Assembly: GCA_963805975.1 (NCBI GenBank)
Contig: CAWDVR010000006.1
Span: forward strand, 96,001-160,000
DNA from: an uncultured Acidobacteriota bacterium
Lineage (GTDB): Bacteria; Acidobacteriota; Thermoanaerobaculia; Multivoradales; SZUA-115
Direction of reading: 5' to 3'
DNA: 64,000 nucleotides
Made by a program: the position numbers and the translations under genes. Within the stretch, counting starts at the first letter, position 1. Each line of letters begins with the position of its first letter. Shown in pieces: positions 1-5,748 of this stretch. The notes beneath the pieces were generated by a model, which ran no database searches, had not been told where the DNA came from, and saw only the letters and a program-made list of their open reading frames with translations.

Positions 1-444
1 GGCGGCGAACAGGCCGTCGTGGGCGTCCGGGTTGAGCATCGGGGCCACGTAGAAGGTGCGGGTCGCGAGCAGCTTCGCCGCCTCTCCCTCGGCGGCGAGG
101 AGGGTCGCGATCAGGTCGAGCGCCGCCTCGGTGCCGGCGTTGTGGAAGCCGACGATGTTGGCGCCCACGAACACGGCCGGCCGTTCCTCCGGCGGCACCG
201 GGCCGGGGGAGGCGAGGGTCGCCACCCACAGATCCTTGCCGGCGGACGATTTGCCGATCGAGGCAAGCTGCAGAGGCTTTCCGCTGGCCTTGGCCCACTC
301 GCCGAGCTGCCGCTCGACCTCGGCCACGGAGTGATATTCGCCGTAGTCCACGGCAGCCGCGGGTGCTGCCGTTACGAGGCTCGCCAGGGCGAGCCCCAGA
401 CCGGCCAGCGCGGCGAGACGTTCTTTCGAGCACGATCGCTTCAC
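1..444 (-). CDS. Secreted M14 zinc-carboxypeptidase-family protein, N-terminal part (runs off the window edge); metal-binding motif is non-canonical
   Basis: Not in the ORF track; translated by hand. GTG at 444 with GGAGG upstream. MKRSCSKERLAALAGLGLALASLVTAAPAAA is a signal peptide, followed by YHSVAEV...IGKSSAGKDLWV...PAVFVGANIVGFHNAGTEAAL...FYVAPMLNPD, matching the M14 N-terminal pattern. Confidence 0.75.
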   Translation of the reverse strand, partial: MKRSCSKERLAALAGLGLALASLVTAAPAAAVDYGEYHSVAEVERQLGEWAKASGKPLQLASIGKSSAGKDLWVATLASPGPVPPEERPAVFVGANIVGFHNAGTEAALDLIATLLAAEGEAAKLLATRTFYVAPMLNPDAHDGLFAA

Positions 445-532
445 ACAGTCCTCCCTTCCGCCTTTGGCGGCTGCGTTCGATATACGGGGAGGGGGAAGAA
501 AGGTTCGTCCTGAGAGTAGAATCCCGGAGGTC

Positions 533-1438
533 ATGGATCTCAGCGACGAGCTGCGCCGCCTGGTGGTGCTGCTCCAGAAGACGCTCCGGCGCGCCAGTCT
601 CACCCAGCGCCGGGTGAGCGTGCGCCTGGGGCAGCACCCGAACTATCTCTCGCAGGTCTTCGCCGGCAAAGCCCGCCTCAAAGAGGACGTGGTGTTTCGC
701 GTGCTGCGGCTCTGCGGCGTGGCGGTCGAGGATTTCTACGCCGAGCTGGCGGCGGGCGGCCGGCGGCCGGTGGCGGTCCGGGTCGAGGCGGGCCCGGGAG
801 GCGCCGTTGCGGGCACTGCGAGCCGTGCCGGTGGGCAGGCCGGACCGGTGTCGCCGGCCGAGGCGCGCCGCTTCATTCGCGAGGCCCTGTCGGTTCGGCA
901 AGAGGCGGGCAGCGCGAGAGAGGCACGGCCTCCGGCGCAGAGCGACCGCCGCCGCGAACAGTTGGAGGCCAGCCGTCACAGCGCCCGCGTCAAGACCCTG
1001 CTACGGGCCAAGATCCGGCGTGCGGGCCTGCGCCAGCGCGATATCAGCCGCCGGTTGGGCGAGCACCCGGACTATCTGAGCCAGGTGCTGCGCGGCAACG
1101 TGGTGCTCAAGGCGGAACACGTCCTCGCCGTCCTCTGCGAGCTGGAAATCGCGCCCGCGGCGTTCTACGGCGAGCTCTACGCCGGCGTGCCGCAGGTCAC
1201 CGCCGTCGCAGATCCAGGGCGCGAGCTGGTGCGCGGCGTGAGCTGGGGGGAGATTCTGGCCCTGATCGACGCCGAGCTCGAGGCCAGCGCCAGGCGGCGC
1301 AGCGTGCAACTGGCACCCACGGCCGGGGACTCTACGGCGAGCGGACGCGCTTCCGGCCCTCCCGCCGTGCGGCGAGCGCGAAGAAGCCGACCAGCCCGAA
1401 AATCGCCCGTCGAAGTGCTTTCATGGTCGCGCGAGTAG
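533..1438 (+). CDS. Transcriptional regulator with two tandem XRE/Cro-like HTH domains
   Basis: Two similar segments: LTQRRVSVRLGQHPNYLSQVFAGKARLK and LRQRDISRRLGEHPDYLSQVLRGNVVLK. ATG at 533 follows GGAGG (short spacing, so the start is uncertain). Confidence 0.75.
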   Translation: MDLSDELRRLVVLLQKTLRRASLTQRRVSVRLGQHPNYLSQVFAGKARLKEDVVFRVLRLCGVAVEDFYAELAAGGRRPVAVRVEAGPGGAVAGTASRAGGQAGPVSPAEARRFIREALSVRQEAGSAREARPPAQSDRRREQLEASRHSARVKTLLRAKIRRAGLRQRDISRRLGEHPDYLSQVLRGNVVLKAEHVLAVLCELEIAPAAFYGELYAGVPQVTAVADPGRELVRGVSWGEILALIDAELEASARRRSVQLAPTAGDSTASGRASGPPAVRRARRSRPARKSPVEVLSWSRE

Positions 1439-1548
1439 CGCTCTGGCCAGGATGTCGGCGATTGCCGCGTGCATCTCGGCGTTGGGGATGCCGATCGACC
1501 ACGGCTGGGGGATCTCCCCGCCAGAACTGATCGTGCTGGGGTGGGCCT

Positions 1549-2775
1549 TCAGCCCTTCCGGCTCTGGATTCTCTTCAGCCGCTCCGCCACCTGGGTGATC
1601 GAGGCCACGGTGGCGGTGTGGGCGCGTGCCGCTTCGGCGAAGAGGAGGAGAGCGGCGGTGGCCTCGCGGGGGATGTCTCGGGAGACGAACACCGGGTACA
1701 TCTCGGTGGCGAGCTGCTCGACCTCTCGCATCTTGCCGAGCTGAGCGTAGAAGACGGCGAGGTCGAGAGCGGCCTGCGCCGCGTCGAAGGCCAGCCCCAA
1801 GTCGGCGAAGCGCTGGCGGACTGAGTCGAGGATCGAGACCGCTTCCTCGAGTTGGCCCAACCGCGCCAGCAACCGGCCTTCCACCCAGCGCTTGCGGAGC
1901 TTGAGGAGCGGACCGGCGGCCTCCTCGTACAGCATCTCCGAGCGTCCGAGAATTGCCATCGCGACCTGGGTTTGGCCCGCCTCCTCGAGATACAGGGCGA
2001 GGTTGTGAAGCGCGTAGAGCTTGAGCAGTGGGTCCTTTTCGCCGTCGGCGCGGCCTGCGGCGGTGACCACTGTCACGATGGCGTCTTCGAGACGGTCCGC
2101 CAGCCAGTAGGCACGGCTGAGTACCAAGAGCGTCTTGGCTTCCTGCTGTGGGTCCGAGATCGAGGCCTGGAGCTGCTGCGCCTCTTTCAACAGCTCGATC
2201 GCCTGTCGCAGGCGGCGCTGTTCGATGCGCAGAGACCCCTTGAGCGCGAGCAGCTTGGCTTTGAGCATCGGATCGCCACTGCCGAACACGAGATGGAACT
2301 GCGCACGGCTCCATGCCTCCTCGGCCTCGCGCAAGGCTCCCCGAACCTTGAGAGAATTGGCCAACGCTCCCCAAGCCTCTGCGCGCATGTCAGCGGTCAG
2401 GGCTGCGAGCCGCCCGGTAAAGGGCAATGCTTCCGCGCAGGCCACGGCGGCACGGGCCGCTGCGAGCATGGCCGCCGCGTCCGTATCGCGTTGTGTTTCG
2501 CTCTGCTCGATGAGCAGCTGGCAGGCCGACAGCGAGGCGGCTTGAGGATGAACTGCCAGCCAGCCCGGGTGCTCTTCGGCACCCAGCTGCAGGAGTTGCC
2601 GGCAGGTCGCCTCCGCGACCTCGGCGTCATCCGCTACGGGCAAGGATTCGCGTGCCGCGATCAAGCTACGGCGGATCGCGGCTTGGTAATGTGCCTCGTG
2701 TAGACGGCCGGATTCTTCCGAAACCGGAACGTCAGAGTGCGCACACTCCCTGACAGACCTCTCACTTGCGGCCAT
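1549..2775 (-). CDS. Stand-alone tetratricopeptide-repeat (TPR) protein, about 408 aa
   Basis: Helical TPR-like repeats (AEAWGALANSLKVRGALREAEEA; LYALHNLALYLEEAGQTQVA; GRLLARLGQLEEAVSIL; AALDLAVFYAQLGK). No signal peptide or HTH. Start uncertain (ATG 2775; ORF extends to 2826). Confidence 0.75.
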   Translation of the reverse strand: MAASERSVRECAHSDVPVSEESGRLHEAHYQAAIRRSLIAARESLPVADDAEVAEATCRQLLQLGAEEHPGWLAVHPQAASLSACQLLIEQSETQRDTDAAAMLAAARAAVACAEALPFTGRLAALTADMRAEAWGALANSLKVRGALREAEEAWSRAQFHLVFGSGDPMLKAKLLALKGSLRIEQRRLRQAIELLKEAQQLQASISDPQQEAKTLLVLSRAYWLADRLEDAIVTVVTAAGRADGEKDPLLKLYALHNLALYLEEAGQTQVAMAILGRSEMLYEEAAGPLLKLRKRWVEGRLLARLGQLEEAVSILDSVRQRFADLGLAFDAAQAALDLAVFYAQLGKMREVEQLATEMYPVFVSRDIPREATAALLLFAEAARAHTATVASITQVAERLKRIQSRKG

Positions 2776-2800
2776 TTCTTCGGCAGAGTGTACACGAAAG

Positions 2801-2823
2801 GAGAAAGGGGGACAAAGTCCCCC
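2801..2823 (-). terminator. Intrinsic terminator-like hairpin between the propeptide gene and the TPR gene
   Basis: On the minus strand, GGGGGAC-TTT-GTCCCCC (2807-2823) is followed by TTTCTCCTTT. Confidence 0.55.
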
Positions 2824-2879
2824 CAACCTTGCCCAGGCCGTGTCAAACGGCCCTATCTCGGAGTGGGCGCTTCCTCCTA

Positions 2880-3167
2880 CTACCTCCCTCCGTAGGGATC
2901 ACACGAGGGACCGGACTTCGCCGCGGCCGACCGCGTTCTCTGCTCTACGCCGTCGGACCCGCCCCTCTCGGTGCTCTGGAACACGTCCGCGACCACCCGC
3001 CACCAGGCACCTAGGAAGTCGAAGGCGGCGAACACGGCCGAACGCGGTGCGGCATCGAAGGCGATCGGCCCGGCCAGAGCAGTGAAGGGCGTGAGGGTGA
3101 TTGCGAGCAGGGCAACGACGGCGGCGGCACGGCGTGAGCGCGCGAGCCTGGGGGTGGGGAATGACAT
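2880..3167 (-). CDS. Small secreted protein / candidate signalling propeptide (95 aa) ending KSGPSCDPYGGR
   Basis: ATG at 3167 with AGGGAGG RBS. Basic n-region (RLARSRR), hydrophobic h-region (AAAVVALLAITLTPF), ALA cleavage site, polar linker and a compact C-terminal GPSCDPYG motif. Confidence 0.7.
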   Translation of the reverse strand: MSFPTPRLARSRRAAAVVALLAITLTPFTALAGPIAFDAAPRSAVFAAFDFLGAWWRVVADVFQSTERGGSDGVEQRTRSAAAKSGPSCDPYGGR

Positions 3168-3434
3168 GAAAATCCTCCCTTTGCCGCCGCGGCGCAGCTC
3201 GGCGGCCACCGCGACCCCAGAGGCCCGCGTGCGGCGATCGGTGAGCCAGTATGGAGGACTAGGAACGTCGGGCCGCAGGTTTTTGCCGAATGAAGGAAGA
3301 AACAACGGTCGAGGAGCAAAAACGAACGGCTGTCGGATCCGTGCCCGTGGCGGCGGCGATTGGAGCGGAGTCGCTACCGGCGAGGCGGCCGGCGTTTTGG
3401 GCTTCTGATAGGTTTGGGTATCCGCTCCTCAACG

Positions 3435-4070
3435 ATGCACCGCGTACCGCTCTGGCTCAAGCTCGCCGTCACGGCCTGGATGCTGGTCTGGATACCGGCT
3501 TACTGGGTCATGAACGGGCCGGTCAACTTCCTCTGGTTCTGTGACCTGGCGAACCTGGTCATCGCCATCGCCATCTGGCGGGAGAGCCCGCTGCTCTTCT
3601 CCTCGCAGGCCGTTTCCGTGCTGCTGATCCAGATCGTCTGGATCCTCGACTTTGGCTGCGCCCTCCTCGCCGGGTTCCATCCGGTCGGTGGCACCGAGTA
3701 CATGTTCGACCCCATGGAACCTTTGTGGTTGCGGCTGCTGTCGCTCTTCCACGTGGTAGTGCCGGTGCTGCTGCTGTGGGCCATCGGCCGCCTGGGCTAC
3801 GACCCACGCGGCTGGAAACTACAGACCGCGATCTCCTGGGTGATGCTGCCGGTGACCTTCTGGCTCACCGACCCGGCGCTCAACATCAACTGGCTGTGGG
3901 GTCCTTTCGGCCTCGAGCAGACCCTGCTGCCGCCTTGGGCCTACCTGCTGTTCTGCATGGCCGCGTATCCGCTGGTGCTCTACCTGCCGACCCACTGGCT
4001 GCTCCTCCGCTGGGCTTCGTCGCGCCGTGGGCGCGGCCGAGATCCGCTGCCGCTCGCCGGCACGCCATGA
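3435..4070 (+). CDS. Conserved-type integral membrane protein (5-6 TM)
   Basis: Several hydrophobic helices with motifs NFLWFCD, GGTEYMFDP, LSLFH and NINW; GC-rich codon usage. Confidence 0.75.
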   Translation: MHRVPLWLKLAVTAWMLVWIPAYWVMNGPVNFLWFCDLANLVIAIAIWRESPLLFSSQAVSVLLIQIVWILDFGCALLAGFHPVGGTEYMFDPMEPLWLRLLSLFHVVVPVLLLWAIGRLGYDPRGWKLQTAISWVMLPVTFWLTDPALNINWLWGPFGLEQTLLPPWAYLLFCMAAYPLVLYLPTHWLLLRWASSRRGRGRDPLPLAGTP

Positions 4071-4161: not shown

Positions 4162-5748
4162 ATGCCCCCCCAAGCCAAGCCGTCCCAAGCCCAGTTACCT
4201 CAAGCCAACCCCCGCCAGACCAGGCCCTTCCATTCGACCCGGCTGCCCCTCGCCGGGGCCGCCTTGCTCGTGGCCCTGCTTTCCGCCGCTGGCTGCGCCT
4301 CGTCAGCGCCCGCACTGCGCGCGGCCGACCGTCTGCCGCTCGAGGCCTGCCGGGTCGAAGGAGTGAAGGAGAAGCTCCTCTGTGGCACCTACCCGGTGTG
4401 GGAGAACCGCGAGGAGAAGAGCGGGCGCAAGATCAACCTCCATGTGGTGGTCGTGCCGGCCCTGGCGGAAGACCCCGCGCCGGATCCGATCTTCATCTTC
4501 GCCGGCGGTCCCGGCGATTCAGCCACCAACGGCGCCGCCGGCTGGGCGGAGGACCGCGCGCTCCGCTCGCGGCGGGACATCGTGCTCGTCGACCAGCGGG
4601 GCACCGGCTCCTCGCACCGCCTGGACTGCAAGGTGCCCGAGGATCCTGCCGACGTGCAGGCCTACTTCGAGCCGACCCTGCCGCCGGCCGAAGTGCGGCG
4701 GTGCCGCGCCGAGCTCGAGAAGACCTCGGACCTCACCCAGTACACGACCTCGATCGCCATGGACGACATCGACGAGGTCCGCCAGTGGCTGGGCTACGAC
4801 AAGATCAACCTCGAAGGCGGCTCCTATGGCACGCGCGCCGGCCAGGTCTACATGCGCCGCCACGGCGAGCACGTACGTGCGGCCATCCTCGTGGGGGTGG
4901 CGGGCATGAACCAGTACCTGCCCCTCTTCCATGCGCGGGACGGCAAGCAGGCGGTGGACCGCCTCCTCGACACCTGCGCCGCCGATGCGGCCTGCCGCAC
5001 GGCCTTCCCCGACTCGAAGGCCGAGCTGGAGAAGGTCTTGACCGGCCTCGACACCAACCGGGGCAAGGCCACGGTCAAGAGCCCCGTGGACGGCAAACCG
5101 GTGGCGGTGACCATCCCGCGCGACATCTTCGCCGAGCAACTGCGCTTCACGCTCTACAACGCCTATTCCGCCTCGGCCACCCCCTACGTCGTCCACCGTG
5201 CCGCCGCAGGAGACTTCGAGCCGTTCGCGCGCCTGTCGATGCTCTGGGAGCCGGACTTCCGCGGCATCCTGGCTTTCGGTATGCACCTGTCGGTGACCTG
5301 CGCCGAGGACGTGCCCTTCGTCCGGCCGGAAGTGATCGAGCCGGCGGTGGCGGGTACTTACCTGCGCGGCTATCGCATCAACCAGCAGGTGGCGGCTTGC
5401 CGCGAGTGGGCGCAGGGCGAGATCCCGGAGGGCTACCATCAGCCGATCGTCTCCGACATCCCGACGCTCCTGGTCTCCGGTCCCTATGACCCCGTGACGC
5501 CGCCGCGTTGGGCCGAGGAGGCGGCGCCGCATCTCGCGCAGAGCCTCCACTGGGTGATCCCGAACGCGCACCACGGCCCGGGAGGGCTGACGAACGACGA
5601 GTGCTACACCAACGTGGCCGCGGCTTTCATCGAGAACGGCTCGGTCGCGGGCCTCGACACCTCGTGCGGCGCCACCATGGAACGCCCGGCCTTCGTCATC
5701 GACGCCGCGGGCTTCGAGAAGCTGATGAAGGAGGCGGAGGGAGGCTGA
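4162..5748 (+). CDS. Alpha/beta-hydrolase, TAP-like (peptidase S33) lipoprotein
   Basis: Lipobox-like LLSAAGC; motifs GGPG, DQRGTG, nucleophile GGSYG, DPVTP and a C-terminal His (NAHHG); AGGAG RBS before ATG 4162. Confidence 0.85.
   Translation: MPPQAKPSQAQLPQANPRQTRPFHSTRLPLAGAALLVALLSAAGCASSAPALRAADRLPLEACRVEGVKEKLLCGTYPVWENREEKSGRKINLHVVVVPALAEDPAPDPIFIFAGGPGDSATNGAAGWAEDRALRSRRDIVLVDQRGTGSSHRLDCKVPEDPADVQAYFEPTLPPAEVRRCRAELEKTSDLTQYTTSIAMDDIDEVRQWLGYDKINLEGGSYGTRAGQVYMRRHGEHVRAAILVGVAGMNQYLPLFHARDGKQAVDRLLDTCAADAACRTAFPDSKAELEKVLTGLDTNRGKATVKSPVDGKPVAVTIPRDIFAEQLRFTLYNAYSASATPYVVHRAAAGDFEPFARLSMLWEPDFRGILAFGMHLSVTCAEDVPFVRPEVIEPAVAGTYLRGYRINQQVAACREWAQGEIPEGYHQPIVSDIPTLLVSGPYDPVTPPRWAEEAAPHLAQSLHWVIPNAHHGPGGLTNDECYTNVAAAFIENGSVAGLDTSCGATMERPAFVIDAAGFEKLMKEAEGG

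Follow-up and report, generated by a model that had tools for sequence, protein, structure and literature searches.

The window analysed here is a stretch of 64,000 nucleotides from an uncultured bacterium of the Acidobacteriota class Thermoanaerobaculia (GenBank assembly GCA_963805975.1, contig CAWDVR010000006.1, positions 96,001 to 160,000 of the forward strand). Near its first letter lie three neighbouring genes that encode a small protein with a secreted-type leader (the precursor), a tetratricopeptide repeat (TPR) protein, and a protein with two XRE-type helix-turn-helix (HTH) domains (Table 1). A first-pass annotation had described a 95-residue open reading frame (ORF), a co-oriented 408-residue TPR gene and a double-XRE gene converging on them, and all three ORFs are as it claimed. 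Compared with the syntenic locus of a same-genus genome (G001), each is under purifying selection, the ratio of nonsynonymous to synonymous divergence (dN/dS) being 0.14 for the TPR gene, 0.34 for the precursor and 0.29 for the HTH gene, at dS values of 0.6–1.06. Precursor and TPR gene are spaced 104 nucleotides apart. Orthologues of the precursor are found in G001 and in P0004, the latter being the one relative returned when the protein database was searched with the precursor; the family was reached through synteny and profiles, and no Pfam family matched the small ORF. The three genes are real and conserved, and they make up one copy of a cassette that is repeated many times in Thermoanaerobaculia genomes.

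Table 1. Cassette genes, their predicted elements and the flanking genes, numbered from the first letter of the window
Feature	Position	Strand	Description
M14 zinc carboxypeptidase gene	1-444	-	flanking; divergent from the XRE gene
Candidate -10 hexamer TAGAAT	517-522	+	from sequence; 10 nt before the HTH start codon; conserved in G001
Tandem XRE-HTH gene	533-1438	+	301 aa; predicted output regulator; convergent to the precursor/TPR pair
TPR gene	1549-2775	-	408 aa, cytoplasmic-type; predicted peptide receptor
Candidate -10 hexamer TACACT	2787-2792	-	11 nt before the TPR start codon; without a Shine-Dalgarno site
Terminator-like hairpin	2806-2824	-	between precursor and TPR gene; 8 pairs, pyrimidine tail
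Precursor gene	2880-3167	-	95 aa: signal peptide, Trp-containing amphipathic-looking spacer, single C-terminal core motif
Core motif GPSCDPYG	2889-2912	-	residues 86-93, preceded by K-S; predicted mature signal; fits the subgroup pattern G-P-x-x-D-P-[W/L/Y/F/A/D]-G
Predicted signal peptide	3072-3167	-	residues 1-32; A-L-A cleavage site (residues 30-32); from sequence and hydropathy heuristic
Ribosome-binding site GGGAGG	3174-3179	-	of the precursor; from sequence
Precursor 5' leader	3183-3235	-	predicted long hairpin just before the Shine-Dalgarno site; 53/54 nt identical in G001
Candidate -10 hexamer CATACT	3248-3253	-	of the precursor gene; conserved in G001; similar hexamers in relatives by eye
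Membrane protein gene	3426-4070	+	flanking; 214 aa; without a Pfam family
TAP-like alpha/beta hydrolase lipoprotein gene	4162-5748	+	flanking

Precursors and their linkage to TPR genes

The precursor begins with a basic n-region and a hydrophobic h-region that lead to the A-L-A site, and it ends with KSGPSCDPYGGR. A secreted-type leader had been claimed for it, and a hydropathy heuristic, on which all signal-peptide calls reported here depend, finds the n-, h- and c-regions together with an AxA-type site. Among 101 precursors collected from the family such a site is present in 92 and a lipobox in 1. Paired arginines are found in 45 of the 101 as against 58 of 264 controls; export by the Tat route is unsupported, as the strict motif RRxF[LIVM] occurs in only 3/101. 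The spacer contains at least one Trp in 95 of the precursors.

The 101 precursors hold 146 core motifs, one to six in each, and it is here that the earlier expectation of a conserved GxxxDPxG tail is both borne out and amended: the motif is conserved across the family, but it is not always C-terminal, since in only 47/101 precursors does the last core lie two residues or fewer from the C-terminus (tails extend up to 53 residues), and it is repeated in 26/101. A Lys two residues ahead of the first core in 40/101 marks a possible cleavage site. Cores within one precursor resemble each other closely (mean similarity 12.5, compared with -0.9 between precursors), and, as had been anticipated, core similarity rises with the identity of the associated TPR proteins (Mantel rho 0.25, p 0.001, n 101), a correlation that co-inheritance alone can produce. 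Orthologues of the window cassette differ at the variable positions of the core (GPSCDPYG, GPTLDPAG and GPACDPNG), and the G004 orthologue has a looser variant. Asn after D-P is found in 1 of the 36 cores of the window's subgroup versus 43 of 106 elsewhere. Family-wide, precursor lengths span 74–146 residues (5–95% range), with starts that are partly overcalled.

The TPR family is large. The window's genome (G000) holds 14 loci, one of them split into two frames, and matches are present in 34 of 41 relatives searched, with up to 44 per genome; a profile search of G013 gave 51. In a phylum-wide sample that includes the unpublished genome G063 and in which 12 candidates were scored per genome, matches at 1e-30 are present in 10 of 151 genomes; nine of these belong to the window's class, and the tenth, a borderline case, does not. 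Beyond this, 3,751 cluster representatives (50% identity) score E up to 1e-30, and the look-alike Atlas clusters are mostly from Acidobacteriota.

Linkage between the two kinds of gene was assessed in 224 loci taken mostly from ten genomes picked for high copy number, and hence a non-random sample. They gave 223 distinct TPR matches, of which 186 (full length, with enough upstream DNA) were used and 37 dropped. An ORF of 40–190 residues with a signal-peptide-like start and a GxxxDPxG motif, ending upstream on the same strand, accompanies 101 of the 186, whereas the same kind of ORF was found on the opposite strand in 3/186, downstream in 3/176 and in 3/2000 random windows. The linkage of TPR homologues to small signal-peptide ORFs that the first-pass annotation had supposed is therefore clear. 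A profile built from those 101 precursors raises the upstream count to 126/186, a partly circular figure, and a further 17/186 loci have a precursor in another position. In the window's genome, 11 of 12 matches to the precursor profile lie upstream of a TPR gene, the twelfth being an orphan. In G013, which was held out and gave no precursor to the profile alignment, 26 of 27 precursor matches are no more than 2.3 kb from a TPR match (12 upstream, 13 convergent, 1 downstream).

Some loci vary the arrangement. At L040 (G000:C1:60700-60940), L037 (G000:C5 near 45000) and their G001 counterparts L092 and L083, ORFs of 30–60 residues upstream of two TPR paralogues have a hydrophobic start and a DPxG-type core without a full signal peptide, and may be leaderless variants. 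The orphan, precursor-like ORF at G000 C1:1482932-1483351 (minus strand) has a signal peptide and a Trp spacer without a GxxxDPxG core or an adjacent TPR gene, and at G000:C2:839130-840602 (minus strand) the TPR paralogue is split over two frames next to an intact three-core precursor. Many cassettes also have a short degenerate TPR paralogue next to them (270–330 residues, covering the N-terminal part of the repeat array), frequently in divergent orientation to the XRE gene. These paralogues could be decoys or partners; examples are at L031:5339-6151, L032:7454-8368, L256:4371-5216, L260, L263 and L269, with several more in G013.

TPR fold and output designs

Pfam TPR_12 recognizes the window's TPR protein at E 5.6e-6, slightly below the curated cut-off. 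The peak 19-residue hydropathy is 1.44, and the protein therefore has no signal or membrane helix; three N-terminal helices are followed by about eight helical hairpins, without a zinc finger or HTH. An AlphaFold2 model from 141 sequences is all helical (predicted local distance difference test score, pLDDT, 93; predicted template-modelling score 0.88). Its best fold matches are LGN (Z 24.4, root-mean-square deviation (rmsd) 3.9, 297 residues aligned), Pins (Z 23.6) and APPBP2 (Z 22.3), and the best bacterial ones are RapI (Z 21.1, rmsd 4.4, 303 aligned), NprR-NprX (Z 20.2, rmsd 5.3, 297 aligned) and Rap phi105 (Z 19.9, rmsd 4.5, 292 aligned); Foldseek gave the same order of structure kinds. 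Because LGN outscores RapI and NprR, the fold does not establish membership in the RRNPP receptors by descent, and an NCBIfam scan of 16 family members matched no RRNPP family. As modelled, the protein is a superhelix of the peptide-binding type whose nearest bacterial structures are RRNPP receptors, a likeness short of proof of kinship. Four polar positions, N140, R143, R294 and W297, are near-invariant in the family (93–95% conserved), and we infer that they line the groove.

In the HTH protein, two HTH_3/HTH_31 stretches (E 2.5e-11) mark domains at about residues 14–74 and 150–215. A search of PDB sequences gave no match, and a single-sequence model has pLDDT 55 with weak XRE/C-protein matches at E 0.03 or worse; the structural claim is therefore limited to two XRE-like domains.

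This regulator represents one of three output designs in the TPR family: an N-terminal zinc finger (anti-sigma-like), a fused XRE domain, or a bare TPR protein with a separate tandem-XRE gene. An N-terminal HxxxCxxC-type domain is present in 102/186 members by a motif/profile test and in none of the window's subgroup, the window protein included; Pfam zf-HC2 matches weakly in two local paralogues and above its cut-off in P0016 (E 7e-7). Sigma-like ORFs, some with sigma region 2 only, lie near 32/186 members, and together with the zf-HC2 and XRE domains this suggests a cytoplasmic regulatory role for the family. XRE domains were found at the N-termini of 8 of 18 TPR proteins scanned (E below 1e-6), with a ninth weak, which makes nine XRE-TPR fusions in all.

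The window's TPR protein is one of 36 bare TPRs that form a subgroup, and every member comes from a single family of genomes (f1). A precursor lies upstream of 33 of them, 30 are accompanied by an XRE gene on the opposite strand (26 convergent, 4 divergent), and 27 have both; an XRE neighbour stands beside only 1 of the 102 zinc-finger forms. Seen from the HTH side (30 loci fetched for 39 matches), a TPR-family match is present in the locus of 18 of 19 two-domain HTH genes, two of these matches being weak and partial, compared with 3 of 9 single-domain genes, and in the window's genome all four two-domain HTH genes flank bare TPR genes. In G001, a tandem XRE of the window type is fused to a 72%-identical TPR paralogue, the TPR part of which is under purifying selection. 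The co-occurrence of this HTH family with TPR genes, as first proposed, thus holds and is specific to the bare subgroup, being one design of three in one family of genomes. Monophyly of the subgroup has a FastTree support of 0.96, and in the IQ-TREE tree it needs 3 changes (shuffled mean 29.4), compatible with one origin.

In G001, about 10 kb (L044:5950-15830, C105) are inserted between the TPR and HTH orthologues. The insertion encodes a 1660-residue RHS protein and the tandem-XRE-TPR fusion, and it also contains an orphan RHS fragment and a degenerate TPR gene; behind the first TPR copy lies an HTH remnant. Among sigma-like genes of the window's genome, four small proteins consist of sigma region 2 only (G000:C5:626021-626290, C5:45115-45414, C4:146601-146903 and C5:412380-412640), two directly upstream of TPR genes and the others standing alone; four full relatives resembling extracytoplasmic function (ECF) sigma factors are encoded on C1.

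A candidate peptide switch, its relatives and its rivals

We propose that the cassette is a peptide-controlled transcription switch, in which an exported peptide re-enters the cell, binds the TPR protein and alters its hold on the tandem-XRE regulator, and we judge this to be slightly better than an even bet. By analogy with Rap-Phr-Rco and NprR-NprX, the 95-residue protein would be exported by Sec and trimmed to a peptide of 8–10 residues around G-P-S-C-D-P-Y-G. This peptide would be taken back into the cytoplasm through an Opp-type transporter (the window's genome has two SBP_bac_5 genes, one followed by two permease-like ORFs as judged by eye) and would bind in the TPR groove. The peptide-bound TPR protein, in direct contact with the neighbouring tandem-XRE protein, would then change its action on it, as an anti-repressor or co-regulator. 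Paralogous cassettes would serve as separate channels in cell-to-cell signalling, each with an address given by the four variable core positions, and transcription of the TPR gene would start at a promoter of its own, apart from the precursor.

Cytoplasmic peptide-receptor signalling is described for the Gram-positive Bacillota, whereas the host of the window belongs to the Thermoanaerobaculia, a diderm class. In the literature we found no report of such signalling in Acidobacteriota or on this TPR family, although the supplementary tables of RRNPP_detector, a study that as far as available deals with Firmicutes and viruses, could still hold non-Firmicute matches. In the available part of one screening study (PMC10075063), RRNPP propeptides are sought between 10 and 100 residues, a range that includes the window precursor; the TPR protein lies within the receptor range of 250–500 residues, is of intracellular type with a TPR superhelix, and has the precursor gene adjacent. 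Four of the five screening features of that study are present, the fifth, secretion by Sec, being predicted by the heuristic, and the cassette appears to work like an RRNPP system, with membership unproven. The nearest arrangements are Rap(pLS20)-Phr*(pLS20)-Rco(pLS20) of the B. subtilis plasmid pLS20 and RapI-PhrI-ImmR of ICEBs1, which, as described in the part of PMC7641744 available to us, likewise combine a TPR protein without a DNA-binding domain, an adjacent exported propeptide and a separate HTH repressor. Rap pLS20 matches the TPR model at Z 18.4 (rmsd 7.0, 303 aligned) and RapI at Z 21.1, with 10–12% identity. Unlike the pLS20 system, the window cassette is chromosomal, in a diderm and has many paralogues; its family places the precursor upstream or convergent rather than downstream of the receptor gene, where Bacillales pheromone genes lie (PMC9765709, as far as available); and the precursor, 95 residues long, combines a Trp-rich spacer with a fixed GxxxDPxG frame. 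Its regulator carries two XRE domains in one chain, and no ImmA-like protease was seen.

Other systems share single features. NprR-NprX and PlcR-PapR of the Bacillus cereus group (fold Z 20.2 and 16.2) have the HTH-plus-TPR layout of the XRE-TPR fusion members, whereas the window's TPR protein has no HTH. Phr pheromones are tandemly duplicated in Bacillus phages (Rap3T/Rap105; available part of PMC11343458), so that propeptides hold several similar cores, as here; Rap105 matches at Z 19.9, but the present family is non-phage, with up to six cores and an invariant frame common to all of it. The eukaryotic LGN/GPSM2, Pins and APPBP2 bind extended peptides in solved complexes, yet have 15–16% identity and no exported ligand, and the likeness is that of a peptide-binding superhelix only. 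Long TPR paralogues start with an HxxxCxxC domain, often after a sigma-like gene, in the manner of zf-HC2 anti-sigma regulators of ECF sigma factors, a domain that the window gene lacks. The portion of the ECF classification available to us (PMC7826278) mentions no soluble zinc-finger-TPR anti-sigma factor with a peptide gene, and a zinc-finger N-terminus with sigma-like neighbours is not among the effector types described in the available parts of PMC9765709 and PMC7641744. Host, gene order, precursor length, fixed core frame and zinc-finger output all differ from known RRNPP systems. By analogy, the cassette is best read as a likely Rap-Phr-Rco-like switch of a diderm host. The RRNPP-like quorum-sensing system suggested at the outset is supported in part: its genomic predictions and the non-Firmicute host are upheld, while the fold does not single out RRNPP receptors over other TPR superhelices.

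Several observations weigh against this proposal. The fold is generic, with the eukaryotic structures ranked above Rap and NprR, and in a profile search RapF (E 1.3e-10 over about 150 positions) came behind some 50 other TPR or pentatricopeptide repeat sequences; the window's TPR protein itself has Lys at R143, which is 95% conserved. Precursors of the family are longer than the validated RRNPP propeptides of 21–50 residues (available part of PMC10075063), 43/186 TPR loci have none within the flanks fetched, and the Mantel result has its own explanation in shared descent. Pairing with XRE genes amounts to about one evolutionary event (an independent-pairs test of zinc finger versus XRE gives p 0.5), co-divergence of TPR and HTH proteins is weak (rho 0.26, p 0.009, n 26), and the syntenic cassette of G004 retains both the precursor and the TPR gene but shows no HTH gene within about 4.6 kb downstream. 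Furthermore, none of the genes that recur in 26 wide loci encodes a dedicated exporter, protease or importer, and with a diderm envelope two crossings are needed each way.

It is therefore worth considering what else the cassette could be. A chance grouping of three unrelated genes, with an incidental small ORF among them, deserves almost no credence: the hairpin alone and the lack of a Pfam family would allow it, but the linkage controls, both against random windows and in G013, the purifying selection and the XRE pairing contradict it. The small protein might instead be an exported product in its own right, such as a modified, surface or metal-binding peptide or the ligand of a membrane receptor, with the TPR protein as its regulator or chaperone that does not bind the mature core. 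The layout of leader and repeated cores, with Cys in some, recalls precursors of ribosomally synthesized and post-translationally modified peptides (RiPPs), and there are weak NCBIfam matches to HaaT (2/16) and NsdA (5/16), all far under the cut-off. Unlike in RiPP clusters, however, no modifying enzyme recurs beside the precursors across paralogous cassettes (26 loci of 8–19 kb, outside which tailoring enzymes may still be encoded), nor does an ATP-binding cassette (ABC) exporter or a kinase; a Sec-type signal would moreover take the precursor away from cytoplasmic tailoring enzymes, and core variation follows the TPR subgroups. We consider this improbable.

Two further alternatives accept a ligand and its receptor. 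In one, the loop closes within a single cell: cleavage would take place in the periplasm and the peptide would return to the cytoplasm of the same cell, where it would serve as a timer or would report on export, on proteolysis in the periplasm or on leakage of the outer membrane, and not on cell density. The host class being diderm, the Sec product would end in the periplasm beside its importer, the precursor could be retained at the membrane by its Trp-rich spacer, the cassettes have no recurrent exporter nearby, and the linkage data fit equally well. Many distinct cores per genome and differing cores in orthologues of related genomes are better suited to strain-specific signals, however, and a peptide of 8–9 residues is near porin size; we regard the single-cell loop as unlikely. 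The other alternative, which we find fairly unlikely, keeps the signalling pair with a different target: the tandem-XRE protein would regulate the cassette from above or merely travel along, and the TPR protein would act on another partner, be it a protein with sigma region 2 only, a truncated paralogue of the TPR protein or a regulator whose gene lies elsewhere. A single origin of the XRE pairing is consistent with this, as are the absence of the HTH gene beside the G004 orthologue and at 6/36 subgroup loci and the short degenerate TPR genes that flank it at several loci; the G001 fusion, at the edge of an inserted RHS region, may stem from rearrangement. Against it stand the near mutual exclusion of zinc finger and XRE neighbour (1/94 versus 27/80), the fusion of same-type XRE domains to TPR proteins in G001, G007 and G017 at different tree positions, and the invariable place of the two-domain HTH genes of the window's genome beside bare TPR genes.

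Extended to the whole family, the peptide-switch proposal would describe a multi-channel peptide language of the Thermoanaerobaculia, with tens of TPR receptors per genome, exported GxxxDPxG addresses that cross two membranes both ways, and plug-in outputs (a zinc-finger anti-sigma factor, a fused XRE, or a free single-chain XRE dimer under a bare TPR anti-repressor), evolved apart from RRNPP or as its deep sister; as a joint claim, we place this a little short of even. With up to about 50 copies per genome and the thousands of cluster representatives, it would amount to a major level of regulation in a soil lineage that is abundant and has barely been cultured. The family makes testable whether peptide signals are re-imported in diderms and how a single receptor scaffold is connected to three output types, and its many natural receptor-peptide pairs on one frame would provide a set of possibly orthogonal peptide switches.

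Expression signals and neighbouring genes

Shine-Dalgarno-like sites precede 111 of 120 precursor starts. The near identity of the window's precursor leader with that of G001 persists while synonymous sites have diverged (dS 0.9), and leaders fold at z below -2 in 31/111 precursors compared with 5/100 controls; across 25 subgroup leaders there is no consensus RNA structure, and an Rfam scan of the leaders gave one chance-level match (E 0.38). The terminator-like hairpin claimed between precursor and TPR gene is present, but on its own it is not above chance (one site, with four overlapping calls, versus 2.6 expected in 5 kb; folding z -1.1 for 2770–2890); what lends it weight is recurrence, a hairpin with pyrimidine tail being found in 23/32 intergenic regions of the subgroup and 42/88 others versus 21/150 random windows. 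TAnnnT lies 5–13 nucleotides before an in-frame ATG at 21/32 subgroup loci compared with 124/858 control ORFs, and it is therefore likely that a separate promoter behind the hairpin serves the TPR gene and gives it a nearly leaderless transcript of its own. Such a promoter would uncouple receptor from precursor expression. A sigma-70 promoter scan gave nothing at the scan threshold, and no convincing operator or repeat common to the three promoter regions was found.

Among the flanking genes, the two peptidase-like ones could process the precursor; they do not recur at paralogous cassettes. The survey for conserved target genes near cassettes yielded only a carboxypeptidase-regulatory-domain gene near four G001 copies, other recurring neighbours being orthologous synteny or antisense frames. 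That gene encodes an 800-residue secreted-type protein with carboxypeptidase-regulatory-like domains and adjoins the cassettes at L257, L258, L260 and L261, as a candidate target; at three of these cassettes there is also a DUF1573-type gene, and at two a small secreted-type ORF that contains Cys. Some of the G001 cassette copies have secreted and RHS-type genes nearby.

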